A DNA stretch of 64,000 bases from Candidatus Woesearchaeota archaeon (GTDB lineage: Archaea > Nanobdellota > Nanobdellia > SCGC-AAA011-G17 > JACPIM01), in the NCBI GenBank assembly GCA_964513145.1, contig CAZELK010000002.1, positions 18,413 through 82,412 on the forward strand. The letters are read 5' to 3'. The notes under the pieces are model-generated. The model was not told where the DNA came from and did not search any database. It was given only the letters and a program-made list of their open reading frames with translations. This document shows positions 3,945 to 45,227 of the stretch, in pieces. Numbering within the stretch: position 1 is the stretch's first letter; each line of letters opens with the position of its first letter. Position numbers and translations under genes: made by a program.

Positions 3945-9479
<5,535 letters not shown>

Positions 9480-17818: not shown

Positions 17819-18904
17819 TTAATCTAAAAAGTCTTTATTTTTAATTTTTTCAGGTAAGTATTTCTCAGAAATAAAACTTATACCTTTAGAAGTAAGGGAC
17901 TGAATTTCTACTTTAGCTTCGAATTCTTTCATCATCTTAAATTGTCTTTGCCATTCTTTATTATCTTTAAACCAAGCATATTCTGAAACTTGTTTAATTC
18001 TTGCATAATCTTTTTCATCTAATTTAATGAAGTGTTTTTTAAGATCGTATTTGATAACATCATCCATAGTGATACCAACATATTTTACGCCCGGAATTGT
18101 TAATCTTCCTGACGCATGAGACAGCGCGATGCTGCCGTATTTAATTACGGAGTAAATATATGCACCGTAAATGTCCCCGTCACAGAGTACATAAACTGGT
18201 AGCTTATGTTCTTCATATAATCTTTGTAATAATCTTCTAATTCCTCTTGTAGTTTGACCTTGTGAAGAAATTATAATACAATCATTTTTTTCCCAGAATT
18301 TATCTTCCTGCAAACGTTCCCAAACAGCTGCTTTTTCCATATAAAGAACATATTTAGCATTTACTTTCTTAAATATGATTTCATCAGTGATAGATGGGAC
18401 ACTCCACCCCCCACTACCCATTTTACTTAAGTCAATAGTATCTCCTTTATCTTCAATTACAACTTTTCCAGCTACACTTCCCATTTTATTAGCAGCTACA
18501 TGTAATTGTTCCCTGGAAAAATCAGTAATGACTTCTAAATCTTCAATAGCTTTGTCAGATTCGGTTTGATCATCAACTAGATTAATATTTGTGCCTGGTA
18601 TAGTTCTCTTTACCATGTAAAATACATCTCTTAAACTTGAATGTTTGCCAGAACTCAATAATTCATTTTTTATAACAGAGGCAACTTCAACAGTCTGTAA
18701 AAATTTCTTGGAATGTGCAACATTAAAGAAGCTCCTGGAAGACATTTTGTCTCCTAATTTTAGTATTTTTTGTTTAGTATCATAAACTATATTGCTTAAA
18801 TTTCTTAAGCTCATTTCAATTTCAGGATTTTTTCCTTTTTTAATTTGATCAACTATCTTATTGCCAAAATCTTCCAAAACTTTTTTTGATTTATTTTCTG
18901 CCAT
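17819..18904 (-). CDS. top6A: DNA topoisomerase VI subunit A (Spo11-like)
   Basis: Toprim DxD (YVLCDGDIYG), winged helix with catalytic Tyr region; 361 aa. Confidence 0.85.
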   Translation of the reverse strand: MAENKSKKVLEDFGNKIVDQIKKGKNPEIEMSLRNLSNIVYDTKQKILKLGDKMSSRSFFNVAHSKKFLQTVEVASVIKNELLSSGKHSSLRDVFYMVKRTIPGTNINLVDDQTESDKAIEDLEVITDFSREQLHVAANKMGSVAGKVVIEDKGDTIDLSKMGSGGWSVPSITDEIIFKKVNAKYVLYMEKAAVWERLQEDKFWEKNDCIIISSQGQTTRGIRRLLQRLYEEHKLPVYVLCDGDIYGAYIYSVIKYGSIALSHASGRLTIPGVKYVGITMDDVIKYDLKKHFIKLDEKDYARIKQVSEYAWFKDNKEWQRQFKMMKEFEAKVEIQSLTSKGISFISEKYLPEKIKNKDFLD

Positions 18905-24356: not shown

Positions 24357-27300
24357 CTAAATCTTGCTAATAAATCCAACTTTGGGCTGGAATATTTCTC
24401 CTTCCCTTTTCATTTTTTCAAGAACTTCATCTATAACACTTTCTTCCAAGCCTTTCTCCCTGCACACGCTGATTATATCGTTAACAGGAATAGTCTTAAT
24501 TCCATTTTTATCAAATTCATAAATAACTTCTCTTACTACAATTATTTTATTTCTTTGGCTTGTTGTAATTCCAGTAGCAAGAACATCAACATCAAGTTTT
24601 CCTGTTTGTGGGTCAATTCCAACTTGATATAAACATTTTTTCAAAATTCTGATTGCTCTTTTTGCATCGTCCTTTGTTATTTTATTGCTTAATCTTATTT
24701 TAGCAGAAGCCTCACTTAATCTTATCAAAGCTTCTAATTGTCTAGCACTAATTGGTATTGGTTTTACATCATCCTTACTGCTGCCAGAATTTCTAATACT
24801 AACATAAAAATTTCTAATTTCATCTTTTGCAACATCGCTCAATTTTGGAAAGACTTTATTTTTAGCATATGAAACATATTTTCTTAATAAACTTGGCTCT
24901 ATATCTGGTTCCATATTTCCTGTATTTCCATGAACATCTAAAATATGTGTAGCTATTTTAGCATCTAATTTTTCATCAGGTATATCTCTCATAGGAAAAA
25001 TTAAATCAAATCTATTAATCAAAGCAGGGGGTAAATTAATTTGTGCGGCAATTGGCTGATAAGGATCAAATCTTCCTAATTTTGGATTTGCAGCAGCTAA
25101 AGCGCTGACTCTTGTTAACAAAGTAGCTTGAATATTTGCTTTGCTAAAACTAATTTGCTGTTGTTCTAAACCTTCGTGCAAAGCGCTGGTATCATCTTCA
25201 TCCATTTTATCAAGTTCATCTAAAAAGATTGCTCCACCATTTGCTAAAGCCATTGCTCCGCCTTCCAAAGCCCATCCTTTTAAAAATTCATCTTTGACTA
25301 TTGCACCAGTCAATCCCGCAGCCGAAGCTGACTTACCAGAAACATATCTTGCTTTTGGTGCAACTTTAGACATATACATAAGTAAAGAAGAATTATGACA
25401 ATAAAAATTATTAGCAACAAAATTATGAACTTTATCAACAGTTAAATCATAAACAAATTCTTCTTCAGATTTTATTTTTTCTACAGATTGAATTTTATCC
25501 CAAAATATACTTGAGTAAGCTAAATAGTATAAACGAAGTATTCCTTGTTTCAAAGCAAAATCATTAACTATTCCTTTTATTAAACTTAAAAGAGATTCAT
25601 TAATATATGATTGTTGTACTGGCCTAATTTTTTCTAACTCATAATGTGAAATTAAAGTTTGGGAACAATTAACAGAATTCGCTAAAGTTGCTTGACTAGT
25701 GTATAGATCTTCTCTTAAGCTTTTTGAATCAAATTCTTGTTTTTTTAAAACTGAAATCAAATAAGAATATCGTTCACTTACAGCAGTTAAGATTTTTCTT
25801 AAAGAATTTCTCGAAGGATTTCTATCTCCTCTTTCAAAATGTTGGTAAGTGGTTCTAGGAATACCAAATTCAAACTGAGTTAATTTTAATTTTTTTCTTA
25901 CTGATTTAAGAATTTTAGGTAATCCAGGTATAACATCAATATTAGTATTATAAGTTTGATCAGGATTATTTATTGAATTAATCAATTTTCTTTGTTTTTC
26001 AGAAGAATTAAAACCTATCTTACTAGAATATTTTAAAACTTCTTTTCCAGATACAGTTAAAATCCAATAAGGTCTTTTTATTTTGGCTTTTGTATTAGTG
26101 GCACAGGCTATAGTTTTATGAGTTTGTGAAATAATATTAAACCTTAATAATAAAGTCTTTAAATCATAAATTAAATCCTTACTAGCAGAAGAAACTTTTA
26201 CCTCTCTTTTATCTTCCACAACAGTAGCTTCACCGTCAAAATAACTTTTTAAAAACTCTTTAACAATTGAGTTTGGAGATTTTTGAATTATTTTTGGTAC
26301 TTGTTTATGTTTAGCTCTCATAATTAAGCTAGGTTCTATTTTCTCAAAAAATCTTAAAAACTCAATTGATGAAACATCTAATTCAGAAGCAATTTTTCCT
26401 TTTCTAGGTTTTTTAAATCTAGGTTCAATATTAAAAATTTTTTTTACTAAGAAACTATAATCATCTAATAAAATTTTATCTTCATTAGTGAAAGCAGTTC
26501 GTCCAGTAGTTTCTTCATAATTCATATAAGTTTCTGAAGTTAAATATCCTAATAATCTTGCTAATTCAGGACTGCAAAATTTAGGAATTTTAATATGTGT
26601 ACCATTATGAGCTGAAGTTCTCTCTATATCAAAATCTATTTTTTGAAATTCTGTATTAAGTTTTAGATTTCTGGGGCTTGCAATAAAATCTCCTTTTTTT
26701 AATTCTTCACTTCTTTTAGAAAAAACAATTCCATTTTCAGTTAAAAACATCGGGTGTGTTGGAGAAACAGTAATCTCATTGCCAGTCTCAGTTATTATTT
26801 TATATAAAAATTCAGGAGCTTTTCTTTTCCAAACAGCATTGCATAAACCAGTATAATTTCTATAATCAAATCCTAAAGAAGATAAAGAAAAATTAGTTTT
26901 ATTAAAAACTCCATCATCACATTTCTCAAAATTATTTAAATTTTCATCAACTAAATATTTTATTTCTTTAATTGAACCATCTTTTAAAATAACTTTCGTA
27001 TCTCCTTTTACACACTTGGATGATCCTGGATCACCTACCAATAAAATATGTATATCTCCCCTGTTCCATGTGCCGTCTTTTCTTTCCTTCCTTACTCCAC
27101 CCATTAATTGCAATGATAAGGCTTCTTTAATATCAGCATGACCGTAAATTGATGGAGCAATACTTCCAATAAATTTATCATAAATTTTTGGATTCTTGCT
27201 TAAGGAAATAATTTTTTCTTCCTCTTCTTTGTCAATTATAAGCTCTTCAAAAGTTTCTTCAAGAGGTTCAATAAAATTAGAGTCCATCATCAAATCATAT

Positions 27301-28007
27301 TTTGTGCTTGCAGCTCCAGTTCTTAGTAAAATAGGAACTTCTTTTACAACTCCATTTACTCGTACTTTGCTTCCTGGGGTGGTTTTTCTTTCCATTATAG
27401 GCTCAACTAAATCTTCCTTTAAAAATATACTGAGTCTTTTTGGCTGTTCACCGCCTTGCAAACTATCAGGGCTTTCTTCAAGAACAAGTCTTTGTGCATC
27501 AACTAATTCTTTGCTCAATAATCTGAATCTCCCTTTTTTTCCACAAGTACATCTATAGGGTTCTTTAAATTTAGCATCTAATTGTAAAATAGAAATTGAA
27601 TTTCCACAACTAGGGCATTCAAACTTTGCGCTTGTAACTTGTGGTCTTACATCCGAAGCTTGTCTTACTATCCCTTCAATAATTAAAAATTGTCCTAAGT
27701 GTTCGCTTCTTACATCTTTAATTTTTATTTTTTGGTTTACAGGCAAATTAAAAAATCTAATTCTTAAATACCTGTCAATTTCAAAATTTTCTAATGATAA
27801 CTCAAAAGCCTTGATAGTTTCTTCAGGCTCATCCAATAATTGGTCAGCCAATTGGTGATCGTATTCTGCAAGCTTGGAGAAATCAATAAGTAAAAATTTT
27901 TTTCCAGTTAAAATAGCCTGGTTAATTTGATCTCTATAATTCTGATCTATAAAATCATTAAACTTCTCTACTTGCTCAATAACATCATTCACCAAATCTT
28001 CCCCCAA
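24357..28007 (-). CDS. mcm: MCM replicative helicase with an intein in the Walker A P-loop
   Basis: N-terminal Zn finger (CPSCG...CTCG) and AAA+ core. GDPGSSK-[intein]-SSLLMY..., arginine finger, C-terminal winged helix. Confidence 0.9.
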   Translation of the reverse strand: MGEDLVNDVIEQVEKFNDFIDQNYRDQINQAILTGKKFLLIDFSKLAEYDHQLADQLLDEPEETIKAFELSLENFEIDRYLRIRFFNLPVNQKIKIKDVRSEHLGQFLIIEGIVRQASDVRPQVTSAKFECPSCGNSISILQLDAKFKEPYRCTCGKKGRFRLLSKELVDAQRLVLEESPDSLQGGEQPKRLSIFLKEDLVEPIMERKTTPGSKVRVNGVVKEVPILLRTGAASTKYDLMMDSNFIEPLEETFEELIIDKEEEEKIISLSKNPKIYDKFIGSIAPSIYGHADIKEALSLQLMGGVRKERKDGTWNRGDIHILLVGDPGSSKCVKGDTKVILKDGSIKEIKYLVDENLNNFEKCDDGVFNKTNFSLSSLGFDYRNYTGLCNAVWKRKAPEFLYKIITETGNEITVSPTHPMFLTENGIVFSKRSEELKKGDFIASPRNLKLNTEFQKIDFDIERTSAHNGTHIKIPKFCSPELARLLGYLTSETYMNYEETTGRTAFTNEDKILLDDYSFLVKKIFNIEPRFKKPRKGKIASELDVSSIEFLRFFEKIEPSLIMRAKHKQVPKIIQKSPNSIVKEFLKSYFDGEATVVEDKREVKVSSASKDLIYDLKTLLLRFNIISQTHKTIACATNTKAKIKRPYWILTVSGKEVLKYSSKIGFNSSEKQRKLINSINNPDQTYNTNIDVIPGLPKILKSVRKKLKLTQFEFGIPRTTYQHFERGDRNPSRNSLRKILTAVSERYSYLISVLKKQEFDSKSLREDLYTSQATLANSVNCSQTLISHYELEKIRPVQQSYINESLLSLIKGIVNDFALKQGILRLYYLAYSSIFWDKIQSVEKIKSEEEFVYDLTVDKVHNFVANNFYCHNSSLLMYMSKVAPKARYVSGKSASAAGLTGAIVKDEFLKGWALEGGAMALANGGAIFLDELDKMDEDDTSALHEGLEQQQISFSKANIQATLLTRVSALAAANPKLGRFDPYQPIAAQINLPPALINRFDLIFPMRDIPDEKLDAKIATHILDVHGNTGNMEPDIEPSLLRKYVSYAKNKVFPKLSDVAKDEIRNFYVSIRNSGSSKDDVKPIPISARQLEALIRLSEASAKIRLSNKITKDDAKRAIRILKKCLYQVGIDPQTGKLDVDVLATGITTSQRNKIIVVREVIYEFDKNGIKTIPVNDIISVCREKGLEESVIDEVLEKMKREGEIFQPKVGFISKI
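25392..27014 (-). mobile_element. MCM P-loop intein (aa 332-872, 541 aa) with HTH and LAGLIDADG homing endonuclease
   Basis: Starts CVKGDTKVIL and ends NNFYCHN, followed by SSLL. Contains LARLLGYLTSETY (LAGLIDADG) and an HTH (LKLTQFEFGIPRTTYQHFERG). Confidence 0.8.
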
Positions 28008-31687: not shown

Positions 31688-31811
31688 TGGGCCCGGAGTG
31701 ATTTGAACACCCGACATATACGGCTTCAGCGTATTGCTCTCCTTAGCCACTCTTCTTAGTTTTTTTGATTAAACTTTTTTCTAAAAAGTTTACAGGCTGA
31801 GCTACGGGCCC
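31688..31811 (-). tRNA. tRNA-Phe (anticodon GAA) with a ~50-nt intron in the D-loop
   Basis: Acceptor GGGCCCG/CGGGCCC; anticodon arm ATACG-CTGAAGC-CGTAT (G37 present); T arm GGGTG-TTCAAAT-CACTC. The D-arm GCTC-AGCCTG[insert]GGA-GAGC is interrupted. The insert carries the hairpin AAACTTTTT-AGA-AAAAAGTTT. Confidence 0.7.
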
Positions 31812-41682: not shown

Positions 41683-44292
41683 ATGGACTTAAAAACAAAA
41701 CAAAAATTAAAGAAATTTATAGCAAACTTGTCAATAGTCAGGGGAAGGCATACTGAGTTGGTTTCTGTTTATGTTCCAGCTGGATACGATTTAAATAAAA
41801 TTATTAATCATTTGCAGCAGGAGCAGGGAACAGCATCCAACATAAAAGATGCAAGAACAAGGGCAAATGTAACAGATAGTCTGGAAAGAATGATCAAGCA
41901 CCTAAGATTATTTAAAAGAACTCCTGAAAACGGCTTGGCTGTATTTGCCGGTGATATTTCTCAGGCAGAAAATAAAATTGATATTCAAGTTTTTAGTATT
42001 GAACCGCCAGAGCCATTAAAAGTAAAAATTTACAGGTGCGATCAGACATTTTATTTAGATTTAATTAAAGACATGATGGAGCATAAAGAAGTTTACGGTC
42101 TTATAACTATGGACAAAAGAGAATGCAGCATTGGTTATTTACAAGGCACTTACATAAAATTAGCACATAATTTAACATCTGGTGTTCCTGGGAAAATGCG
42201 TGCCGGAGGGCAGTGCTTATTACCAGACACACTAATACAATCTGCGGAAGGCGATATTTTTGAAATTGAAAAAAGTCACAATCCTCATGTTTTAGTTGGC
42301 TGTGAAATAGATAAATTATCAGCTAAGAATACGCCAATCACAGATAAATGGAATACTAAAAAAAATACAATTTACAAAATAATAACAAAATATCCAAGAA
42401 TAGAATTAGAATGTTCAAAAGATCACGTATTTTTTGTGAGAGAAGATAAATTAGTTGAAAAAGCAGCTGAAGAACTTAAAGAAGGCGATTTTTTAATAAT
42501 GCCTGAACAAATTAATATTAAAGGTAAAGAAATCCACTTTAATCCAATAAAATATTATAATATACTTTATTTAACAAAAGAAGGTAGAGATTTAATTAAG
42601 AATTTAAGAGAAGAAAAGAAACTATATCAAAAGCAATTAGCAAAAGAAATAGGTGTAACTCAAACAGCAATTTCAATAATCGAATTAGGCAAAGAAGGAA
42701 TAAGAGCTAATTTCTTGCAAAGATTATGTCAAAAATTACAGATTAATTTTGAGGAATTTATAAATAATTATACTTCTCATAAATCAACTATAAAACTTCC
42801 AGAGAGATTAGATGAGAAACTTGCACAAATTACTGGATATTTTTTAGGTGATGGAAACTATGAAGAAGAAAGAATCTGTTTTTCAGAAGAAAGAAAAGAC
42901 GTTGCAGAATATTATAGTAATTTATTAAAAAATTACTTTCGTGCAAAGGTCAGTTTAAAATATAGAGAGAAAAAGCATTATTGGTTAATAAGAGCCAACG
43001 GAAAACCAATAGTGAGATTTTTAAAAAATGAATTTCCAGAATTAAGAAATAATGATATAAATACAATTCCAAAGAAAATACTTGAATCAGATAATAAAAT
43101 AGTTGCTGCTTTTTTAAATGGTCTTTTTGACGCCGAAGGGTATCCAAGTTCTTCTCGATCAGTCAGCCTTGGGATGAATAATAAAAGATTAATTCAACAA
43201 CTACAAATGCTTTTGTTAAGATTTAGCATAATTTCCTCATTTATTGAAAATGATAATAAACATAATCCTTATACTAAAAATCATTGTTTTATTGTAGATA
43301 TTACAGAAAAAGAGTCAATAAAATTATTCAAGGAGAATATCGGTTTTACAGCTATAGGAAAATGTAAAAATCTAAATGAAATAATAAACCTAAGAAAAAA
43401 CAAAAAAGAATTAAGTAGAGTAAGAAGAATTTTGATGTCTGGGAAAAAAGTTCGAGAGATTATAGAAGAGTTCGGTTATAATATAGAATTATTCCCTAAA
43501 GTTTCAGGATTTTTTATTGATAAAAGAATGATAAGCAAAAAAGTGTTCTATAAATCAATTTTAAAAGAAGTAGAAAATAAAGATAAAAAATTATATAATA
43601 AATTATTTGAAATTTACAAAGCGAATATTCTCCCAGTTAAAATTAAATCAATAGAAGTAACAAATAAATCAGTAAAAATGGTTGATATCTCAACGCAACA
43701 AGGTAATTTTATAGCAAATTGTTTAATAGTCCATAACTCTGCAAATCGTTTCGCAAGATTAAGGGAAGAAGCTGCTAAAGAATTTTATAACAGAATAAGT
43801 GAAATTGTAAATAAAGAATTTTTGGGCAGACAAGAAATAAAAGGAATTATAATAGGTGGTCCAGGCCATACAAAGGAAGAGTTGCTAGAGTATCTAAATA
43901 ATGAAATCAGGAAAAAAGTAATTGGCACTAAGGATATTACTTACACAGATGAATCTGGTCTTCATGATTTAGTTGAAAAATCTCAAGATATTTTAGCAAA
44001 TGAAATTGTTATGCAGGAAAAGGCATTGATGGCTCGATTCTTCGATACCTTAGGAAAAACTCCAAATAAAATTGTTTATGGTATAAACGAAGTTAGACAT
44101 GCCCTGGAATTATCTGCAGTCGACATAGTTCTTGCTAGTGAAGATTTAGATGATAAAACAATCGAGGAATTAGAAGAATCATGTATAAAAAGTGGCTGTA
44201 AGCTTCAGATAATATCTGTTGATACAAGGGAAGGAAAACAATTGAAAGATCTTGGTAGTGTTGGGGCTATTTTAAGATATGAGATTCAATAA
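41683..44292 (+). CDS. prf1: peptide chain release factor aRF1 (eRF1 homolog) interrupted by an intein right after the GGQ motif
   Basis: NIKD/NIKS-like motif (ASNIKD) and GKMRAGGQ. The extein resumes SANRFARLREEAAKEF. Domain 3 is intact. Confidence 0.9.
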   Translation: MDLKTKQKLKKFIANLSIVRGRHTELVSVYVPAGYDLNKIINHLQQEQGTASNIKDARTRANVTDSLERMIKHLRLFKRTPENGLAVFAGDISQAENKIDIQVFSIEPPEPLKVKIYRCDQTFYLDLIKDMMEHKEVYGLITMDKRECSIGYLQGTYIKLAHNLTSGVPGKMRAGGQCLLPDTLIQSAEGDIFEIEKSHNPHVLVGCEIDKLSAKNTPITDKWNTKKNTIYKIITKYPRIELECSKDHVFFVREDKLVEKAAEELKEGDFLIMPEQINIKGKEIHFNPIKYYNILYLTKEGRDLIKNLREEKKLYQKQLAKEIGVTQTAISIIELGKEGIRANFLQRLCQKLQINFEEFINNYTSHKSTIKLPERLDEKLAQITGYFLGDGNYEEERICFSEERKDVAEYYSNLLKNYFRAKVSLKYREKKHYWLIRANGKPIVRFLKNEFPELRNNDINTIPKKILESDNKIVAAFLNGLFDAEGYPSSSRSVSLGMNNKRLIQQLQMLLLRFSIISSFIENDNKHNPYTKNHCFIVDITEKESIKLFKENIGFTAIGKCKNLNEIINLRKNKKELSRVRRILMSGKKVREIIEEFGYNIELFPKVSGFFIDKRMISKKVFYKSILKEVENKDKKLYNKLFEIYKANILPVKIKSIEVTNKSVKMVDISTQQGNFIANCLIVHNSANRFARLREEAAKEFYNRISEIVNKEFLGRQEIKGIIIGGPGHTKEELLEYLNNEIRKKVIGTKDITYTDESGLHDLVEKSQDILANEIVMQEKALMARFFDTLGKTPNKIVYGINEVRHALELSAVDIVLASEDLDDKTIEELEESCIKSGCKLQIISVDTREGKQLKDLGSVGAILRYEIQ
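42214..43737 (+). mobile_element. aRF1 intein (aa 178-685, 508 aa) with HTH and LAGLIDADG homing endonuclease
   Basis: Starts CLLPDTLIQ and ends CLIVHN, followed by SANRF. LAGLIDADG motifs (LAQITGYFLGDGNYEE, AAFLNGLFDAEGYPS) and an HTH (LYQKQLAKEIGVTQTAISIIELGKEG). Confidence 0.8.
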
Positions 44293-45142: not shown

Positions 45143-45227
45143 AAAAAATTAAGATTAAATGAATTTTTAATACTTGCTAAATAAAAAAGTCATAAGGTTT
45201 AAAAATAATTAATAATATAAATTATAG

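Follow-up and report, generated by a model that had tools for sequence, protein, structure and literature searches.

What does it mean for a class-1 release factor to carry 508 additional residues directly behind the catalytic glutamine of its GGQ motif? This question is raised by a 64,000-nucleotide (nt) stretch of DNA (hereafter the window; positions 18,413 to 82,412, forward strand, of contig CAZELK010000002.1, assembly GCA_964513145.1) from a Candidatus Woesearchaeota archaeon, in which the gene for the archaeal release factor aRF1 is interrupted at that point by a long insert. Essential proteins are typically invaded by inteins at their best-conserved catalytic sites, and the core proteins of translation are believed to harbour few. 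We conclude that the insert is very probably a genuine class-1 intein, most likely splice-competent, which brings along a LAGLIDADG homing endonuclease; its host, a Woesearchaeales-type (DPANN) archaeon, apparently has a single aRF1 gene. The anatomy, fold, conservation and clean insertion of this element, together with the empty, occupied and degenerated alleles of its relatives, are matters of observation.

The host gene starts 6 nt downstream of a class-I aminoacyl-tRNA synthetase gene and is built as follows, with aa denoting amino acids:

41683..44292, plus strand: aRF1 precursor gene, 869 aa plus stop, an uninterrupted frame
41683..42213, plus strand: N-extein, aRF1 aa 1-177, comprising the N domain (NIKD, YRCDQTF) and the start of the M domain, ending GKMRAGGQ
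42214..43737, plus strand: intein, 508 aa, Cys1 to Asn508 (Pfam, AlphaFold2, Foldseek)
43738..44292, plus strand: C-extein, aRF1 aa 686-869 plus stop, with the remaining M domain and the C domain, first residue Ser

The precursor translation reads SGVPGKMRAGGQ, then Cys178 ... His684-Asn685, then SANRFARLREEA. Written with a slash at each splice junction, the boundaries are GKMRAGGQ / C(178)...HN(685) / SANRFARLRE, and the insert occupies precursor residues 178-685 in frame. An earlier sequence-only reading had placed a 508-aa intein between the Q of GGQ and the following Ser at nt 42214-43737, and translation of the open reading frame agrees with that placement to the base; the Pfam matches and alignment with an intein-free relative (L001, below) support it. 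The +1 nucleophile, Ser686, belongs to the host protein, being the Ser of the conserved GGQ-S-x-x-R-F that intein-free alleles have as well. The flanks match all three Pfam domains of the family (eRF1_1, eRF1_2 and eRF1_3), and the NCBIfam aRF1 equivalog TIGR03676 (cut-off 234.7 bits) scores 377 bits on the precursor vs. 406 bits on the spliced 361-aa extein. The aRF1 motifs of the gene are NIKD, YRCDQTF and a normal GGQ, and no second copy of aRF1 and no Pelota was found by tblastn within the 64-kb window. A group I intron or other RNA element was also considered for the insert and ruled out: Rfam is empty over 41-45 kb and the reading frame is continuous.

Within the intein, a Hint splicing domain encloses, in order, a helix-turn-helix (HTH) module, an endonuclease core and a further helical region:

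42214..42543, plus strand: Hint N-lobe, intein aa 1-110, with block A (Cys1) and block B
42397-42438, plus strand: block B, RIELECSKDHVFFV, with Ser68 and His71
42577..42771, plus strand: XRE/HTH_3 module (aa 122-186 of the intein), lying behind the Hint N-lobe and ahead of the endonuclease
42805..43347, plus strand: double-motif LAGLIDADG homing-endonuclease core, intein aa 198-378 (Pfam, conservation, Foldseek)
42820-42858, plus strand: LAGLIDADG motif 1, LAQITGYFLGDGN, ending FLGDGN, with catalytic Asp213
43102-43143, plus strand: LAGLIDADG motif 2, VAAFLNGLFDAEGY, with LFDAEGY and catalytic Glu308
43348..43623, plus strand: helical region after the endonuclease core, intein aa 379-470, five predicted helices
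43624..43737, plus strand: Hint C-lobe, intein aa 471-508, with blocks F and G, VKMVDISTQQGNFIANCLIVHN

The features that define a class-1 intein are all present, i.e., a first Cys, block B, blocks F and G, a +1 Ser, in-frame insertion and the Hint fold. Pfam Intein_splicing matches the insert at 4.6e-20 (72 bits; cut-off 35.8). Block B carries SKDH (intein aa 68-71), and the F/G sequence MVDIS...ANCLIVHN contributes Asp491, the penultimate His507 and the terminal Asn508. In an alignment of full-length relatives C1, S68, H71, D491, H507 and N508 are invariant (116/116). An AlphaFold2 model of the intein, built on 28 sequences, reaches a predicted local distance difference test score (pLDDT) of 92.5 and a predicted template-modelling score (pTM) of 0.91; among PDB entries Foldseek places the TliVMA intein 7qss (E 1.7e-23), PI-PkoII 2cw7, PI-PfuI 1dq3 and PI-SceI closest to it, and phmmer pairs the sequence itself with PI-PfuI 1dq3 (5.7e-12). 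Judged by its residues, its Pfam matches and the modelled fold, the insert is a canonical class-1 intein that is predicted to splice.

The sequence-only reading had also noted two LAGLIDADG motifs and an XRE-like HTH, and Pfam confirms both. LAGLIDADG_3 matches in two stretches (2.5e-24) and HTH_3 matches intein aa 128-182 (4.4e-10, 39.9 bits vs. a cut-off of 23). The metal-binding acids are retained almost throughout the relatives, with D213 kept in 115 of 116 and position 308 being E in 110 and D in 6; across the same 116-relative alignment the endonuclease core matches the splicing lobes in degree of conservation. The model secondary structure of aa 201-375 fits two alpha-beta-beta-alpha-beta-beta-alpha half-domains, and for the core Foldseek returns I-DmoI and I-Tsp061I (target-normalised template-modelling (TM) scores 0.65-0.74, with I-DmoI at about 0.7). 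In the model the HTH module is a bundle of five helices (aa 122-186); it has HipB as its PDB match (phmmer) and is a putative accessory DNA-binding module. The helices of aa 379-470 (pLDDT mostly 85-96, one block at 75) show at least 90% conservation in 21 of 92 alignment columns; they probably help to form the DNA-binding surface or serve as a linker.

From this anatomy a course of events can be proposed. Translation would yield the 869-aa precursor, in which a 59-kDa domain at the tip of the GGQ loop should block release-factor action; we infer that the precursor is inactive because 508 residues cap the loop that must reach the peptidyl-transferase centre. The Hint domain (aa 1-110 plus 471-508) would then carry out an N-S acyl shift at Gln177-Cys178, to be followed by attack of Ser686, cyclisation of Asn685 and an O-N shift, which would restore the AGGQ-SANRF peptide bond and hence a normal 361-aa aRF1. 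The freed intein would act as a monomeric double-motif LAGLIDADG endonuclease, aided by its XRE-type HTH. It would cut empty aRF1 alleles across the GGQ/S codons, and repair from an occupied copy would insert the intein (homing).

Relatives show both occupied and empty sites. A search with the intein alone gave 218 matches, of which the best 120 are all aRF1 genes with an intein at the GGQ site—mostly complete proteins of ~870 aa, with a few cut by contig ends—from Woesearchaeota/Nanoarchaeota metagenome-assembled genomes (MAGs) and metagenomes, and with inteins 45-69% identical to the window copy. These ~870-aa proteins form at least 119 clusters at 90% identity. GGQ/C is found in 119/119 relatives that cover the site, and the C-junctions that could be located by pattern are all HN/S. 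A whole-library search with clustering at 50% identity gave 2382 intein relatives; among the best 150, 64 are aRF1 and the rest have other hosts. When a genome collection was searched with one protein query, which reaches close relatives only, a single locus was recovered (L003). In the occupied relatives P0002 and P0003 the gene upstream of aRF1 is the one found upstream in the window.

Empty sites lie closer still. The sequence-only reading had proposed looking for intein-free alleles in neighbouring lineages, and these were found: the closest orthologues in an extein search are intein-free proteins of 361-371 aa that read GGQS and are 79-89% identical to the window extein, which, once spliced, aligns end to end with the 361-aa orthologues. 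One of them, L001 (GCA_964451535.1), is syntenic, with the same order of class-I tRNA synthetase, aRF1, methyltransferase (other strand) and ScpB genes. Its DNA aligns up to window position 42216 (80% nt identity over the N-extein) and resumes at 43747, with no gap on the L001 side (5564/5571), and the intein-less site reads GCTGGAGGACAG / AGCGCCCAACGTTTTGC and GCTGGAGGACAG / AGCGCCCAACG. Because the L001 alignment breaks only at the insert, the insertion is clean, far beyond chance. Elsewhere on L001, opposite window 45143-45227, an extra SelR (methionine sulfoxide reductase B) gene lies between the methyltransferase and ScpB genes (L001 7135-7518), and a PemK/MazE toxin-antitoxin pair follows further along; the window has no SelR at that position.

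Alleles of intermediate size complete the series. Thirteen proteins of 491-530 aa carry mini-inteins of 130-138 aa at the same junction (HN/S in 13/13), homologous to window intein aa 1-95 and 474-508, and HTH-less variants with inteins of 419-432 aa are without aa ~115-195 only (the HTH module) and retain the 379-470 region. The family at the GGQ site of aRF1 thus comes in three sizes, i.e., ~505 aa with HTH, 419-432 aa without HTH and ~131 aa as a mini-intein, and therefore the HTH is an optional accessory, gained or lost within one intein allele. The loci concerned are:

L012, L014, L034, L040, L074: HTH-less inteins
L009, L010, L016, L030, L039, L051, L055, L058, L063: mini-inteins

On a 1264-nt contig of coverage 1 (L028), the frame that opens at nt 35 reads GGQ/C and meets a stop after 365 codons, inside the intein; this early stop may mark a decayed allele or a sequencing error.

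Compared with the two nearest occupied relatives, the ratio of nonsynonymous to synonymous substitution rates (dN/dS) lies at ~0.18-0.21 in the intein vs. 0.06-0.09 in the extein. These values are rough because dS is saturated (>1); the intein ratio indicates purifying selection. Could the insert nonetheless be one that does not splice, its host gene a pseudogene or the product of misassembly? We consider this barely credible. Nothing specific speaks for it; the window sequence is probably from a MAG, and the related L028 has its early stop inside the intein. The 869 codons of the window gene, by contrast, are unbroken and its catalytic residues all intact, a protein identical to the precursor (P0001) is recorded from an independent source on a 129-kb contig, and more than 100 relatives share the architecture. 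The low extein dN/dS argues the same way, as does the position of the gene, which is the orthologous one, between the synthetase and methyltransferase genes.

How often is the site occupied? The extein search could not answer this, as its list held only intein-free and mini-intein aRF1, not even the 100% identical P0001, and was unusable for frequencies. Because it lacked any full-length intein-bearing proteins, it was replaced by a site-independent sample in which metagenome contigs were scanned with the aRF1 N-domain alignment only (patterns in YRCD.. and VSVYVP...). In that sample 30 of 80 loci are occupied (~37%) and 50 are empty; the occupied loci comprise 15 full-length inteins, 9 mini-inteins, 5 cut by a contig end and 1 with an early stop.

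Occupied and empty alleles are, moreover, interspersed. On a simple neighbour-joining tree of 222 exteins, drawn from non-random protein samples obtained by similarity search, at least 28 gains or losses are required, vs. ~74 with shuffled states, and the three nearest neighbours of the window protein are empty alleles. Some pairs have inteins 83-91% identical in exteins only 46-57% identical, and in others the exteins are the closer match, at 91% identity vs. 61-63% for the inteins. Across all pairs intein and extein identity correlate (r = 0.62), and much of the inheritance is therefore vertical. This correlation is one of the grounds for a second explanation, in which the element is a vertically inherited passenger that only splices, with an endonuclease that no longer homes and is on its way to a mini-intein. 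The mini and HTH-less forms, which attest that the endonuclease part decays in this family, and block G of the window copy, where a Cys stands in place of the usual Gly of ANG, are in keeping with it. We nevertheless judge it improbable, since the catalytic acids and LAGLIDADG core are intact here and in 115-116 of 116 relatives, dN/dS is ~0.2, the window extein has empty alleles as its closest relatives and occupied ones further off, and some pairs are strongly discordant. Empty, full, HTH-less and mini alleles, taken with the discordances, are the pattern that would be expected of an active homing cycle.

In the comparisons of the window with L004 and L005, dS is 1.05-1.32 for the intein and 1.5-2.0 for the inteins' own exteins, lower for the intein in all three pairwise comparisons; this could mean that the inteins are younger than their host lineages, or could reflect saturation or codon bias in a 26%-GC segment. 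As a sign of recent transfer the difference was set aside, dS being saturated.

A third explanation starts from the insertion in the catalytic loop, which should leave the precursor inactive. The intein could have been co-opted, with conditional splicing (set by, e.g., redox state, temperature or contact of the HTH with DNA) gating the supply of release factor, or with the excised HTH-endonuclease acting as a regulator. The HTH and the 379-470 helices are conserved across relatives only 45-69% identical, occupancy is high (~37%), and other archaeal inteins, e.g., that of RadA (cited in PMC4760082), have been suggested to splice conditionally. Very close relatives, however, manage without an intein, the HTH is dispensable within the family, the sequence gives no hint of a sensor, and the distribution suits a selfish element; we would give co-option little credence.

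The reading we prefer, a splicing and homing intein, has weaknesses of its own, and the vertical component, the simple tree and non-random samples, and the rough dN/dS values given above are among them. All sequences stem from MAGs and metagenomes. Block B has Ser where Thr is commoner, the Ser being nonetheless invariant across relatives. The window covers 64 kb of the genome, and a second aRF1 copy may lie elsewhere in it. We infer splicing activity, DNA cleavage and a route of DNA exchange from sequence. Finally, we know of no route of DNA exchange between DPANN cells that would permit homing.

Is such an intein new? The sequence-only reading had suggested a new or rare allele. Rare it is not, with at least 119 clusters and 30 of 80 loci occupied; the part of the suggestion that stands is that no paper describing an aRF1 or eRF1 intein was found in the literature searched. 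That reading had added that databases already listing aRF1 GGQ-site inteins would make the allele known rather than novel, and they are in fact abundant in public data. One pipeline, that of the JGI (Joint Genome Institute), labels such a gene [quoted passage not shown] whereas NCBI names many of them "helix-turn-helix domain-containing protein" or "LAGLIDADG family homing endonuclease," and aRF1 therefore seems absent from those genomes. To our knowledge InBase holds no aRF1 allele. The main text of a 2016 intein census (PMC4760082) mentions no release factor. The insertion site thus looks undescribed in print. What is new is the host protein and the site; the mechanism is ordinary and the allele not rare.

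An intein directly past the GGQ Gln of a class-1 release factor adds a host protein and an insertion site to those recorded, and it would mean that in many DPANN archaea every release-factor molecule needs protein splicing. The series of full, HTH-less, mini and empty alleles at one site suits the study of the homing cycle in organisms whose DNA exchange is poorly understood, and the family supplies an intein that is compact and takes Ser at +1, along with a new LAGLIDADG specificity.

Does the site depend on the glutamine? Outside the window, about 15 cluster representatives among the more distant intein-bearing aRF1 have no Gln ahead of the intein; they read KGG, then W, F, M or S, then / C...HN / SQxRY, in normal register. 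The GGW protein P0269 (50% GC) keeps NIKS and YxCxxxF intact, and among the best 120 matches to its spliced extein 119 read GGW-S and 1 reads GGQ. One of these 119 has a mini-intein and the others are intein-free proteins of ~400 aa, several of them named Aenigmatarchaeota aRF-1. GGW proteins score 462-474 bits on the aRF1 equivalog TIGR03676, and the codons at the replaced Gln are plain TGG or TTC. L008, an intein-free GGW locus on a 1.1-Mb contig, is syntenic with the occupied L006, and both adjoin genes for ribosomal proteins L3, S11, S4 and S13. The sequences concerned are:

L006 10001-12739: GGW plus intein
L008 10001-11218: GGW, no intein
L076 from 906: GGW, no intein (N-domain sample)
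L050 from 3501: GGF, no intein (N-domain sample)
L074 from 1443: GGF plus intein
P0400-P0519, P0262, P0270, P0279, P0280, P0283, P0287, P0312: proteins bearing on the replacement of GGQ

We considered a shifted splice junction for the relatives with W, F or M ahead of /C and rejected it, as intein-free relatives also read GGW-S or GGF-S. The aRF1 intein family occupies the same position whatever the -1 residue. No paper joining GGW with "release factor" and GGQ was found in the literature searched. Were these genomes to lack a GGQ paralogue, the "universal" catalytic Gln would have been replaced in whole DPANN lineages. Were the GGW, GGF and GGM proteins the sole release factors, whole archaeal phyla would terminate translation without need of the Gln side chain or its methylation, and splicing at the GGQ loop could be a tolerated or a regulated maturation step. 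We raise, tentatively and with more doubt than belief, the idea that the GGQ loop of aRF1 is an evolutionary hot spot in DPANN and that the intein there is more than a parasite. We do so because one intein family is present in roughly one in three of the genes sampled and has passed from one DPANN phylum to another, and because the same position is kept where Gln has become Trp, Phe, Met or Ser, with or without an intein.

The aRF1 intein is one of five in the 64 kb, with three in CDC48 and one in MCM:

3945-9479, minus strand: CDC48/VCP AAA ATPase gene, 1844 aa, three inteins
8184-8624, minus strand: CDC48 intein 1, a 147-aa mini-intein, SKFYGE / C...HN / SEK
5871-7361, minus strand: CDC48 intein 2, a 497-aa LAGLIDADG intein, seemingly Ser1, at the equivalent D2 site SKWVGD / S...HN / SEK
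4347-5672, minus strand: CDC48 intein 3, 442 aa, Ser1/Thr+1, VVVIGA / S...HN / TNRPD, with an HTH-like segment and LAGLIDADG-like motifs seen by eye
24357-28007, minus strand: MCM helicase gene, 1216 aa
25392-27014, minus strand: MCM intein, 541 aa, GDPGSSK / C...HN / SSL, with a LAGLIDADG core followed by HTH_3

The boundaries of the CDC48 inteins were read by eye from motifs, and the sole Pfam LAGLIDADG_3 match in CDC48 is the second intein. The aRF1 intein has a GC content of 25.6%, vs. 33-35% for its exteins and a window mean of 28%. The dip was considered as evidence of a foreign origin and rejected as such, the four other inteins having 25-27% GC and the window as a whole little more; as all five lie at 25-27%, low GC is typical of inteins here and is no sign of recent import.

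The sole RNA match in the 64 kb is a weak partial tRNA at 31695-31750 (minus strand; 32 bits, model positions 7-64). ARAGORN did not call it, and the window yielded no other tRNA; an intron-containing or split tRNA, of the sort known from DPANN archaea, is one possible explanation.

How, then, does the aRF1 intein compare with known systems? Its closest paralogue in the window is the MCM intein (31% identity over the endonuclease core, E 5e-14), which likewise combines Hint, LAGLIDADG and HTH_3 at ~25% GC; in the MCM intein, however, the HTH follows the endonuclease core rather than preceding it, and the host site is the MCM P-loop region. The best sequence and fold matches are PI-PfuI (from the ribonucleotide reductase of P. 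furiosus; 1dq3), TliVMA/PhoVMA (7qss, 7qst) and PI-PkoII (2cw7), with Foldseek E of 1.7e-23 to 2e-20 and query-normalised TM scores of 0.58-0.67. They too are archaeal class-1 inteins in which Hint encloses a double-motif LAGLIDADG endonuclease and extra DNA-binding parts. Identity to these solved inteins is only 13-19% (in Foldseek structural alignments), and the hosts differ, being ribonucleotide reductase, V-ATPase and DNA polymerase for PI-PfuI, TliVMA and PI-PkoII, respectively, as against aRF1 here. The accessory of the aRF1 intein is an XRE-type HTH_3 between Hint N-lobe and endonuclease, and that of PI-PfuI is a "stirrup" domain.

Within translation, the aIF2/IF2 inteins of Methanocaldococcus and Pyrococcus are likewise mobile inteins in a conserved translation factor, and the EF2 intein of Methanopyrus (InBase) is another in an archaeal translation factor. 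The best NCBIfam match of the aRF1 intein is PRK14845, a model of intein-containing IF-2 (8.3e-17). Unlike the aIF2 and EF2 inteins, the aRF1 intein sits in a class-1 release factor, directly behind the catalytic Gln. The 2016 census names aIF2 among the archaeal hosts of inteins in its translation category and says of core translation and transcription proteins that they "contain few inteins" (PMC4760082). The same pattern of empty, full and mini alleles, patchy among close relatives, is found in the homing cycles of haloarchaeal MCM and PolB inteins (PMC10643990). There, homing has been demonstrated experimentally and DNA is exchanged through cell fusion or mating, whereas the DPANN aRF1 case is known from sequence alone.

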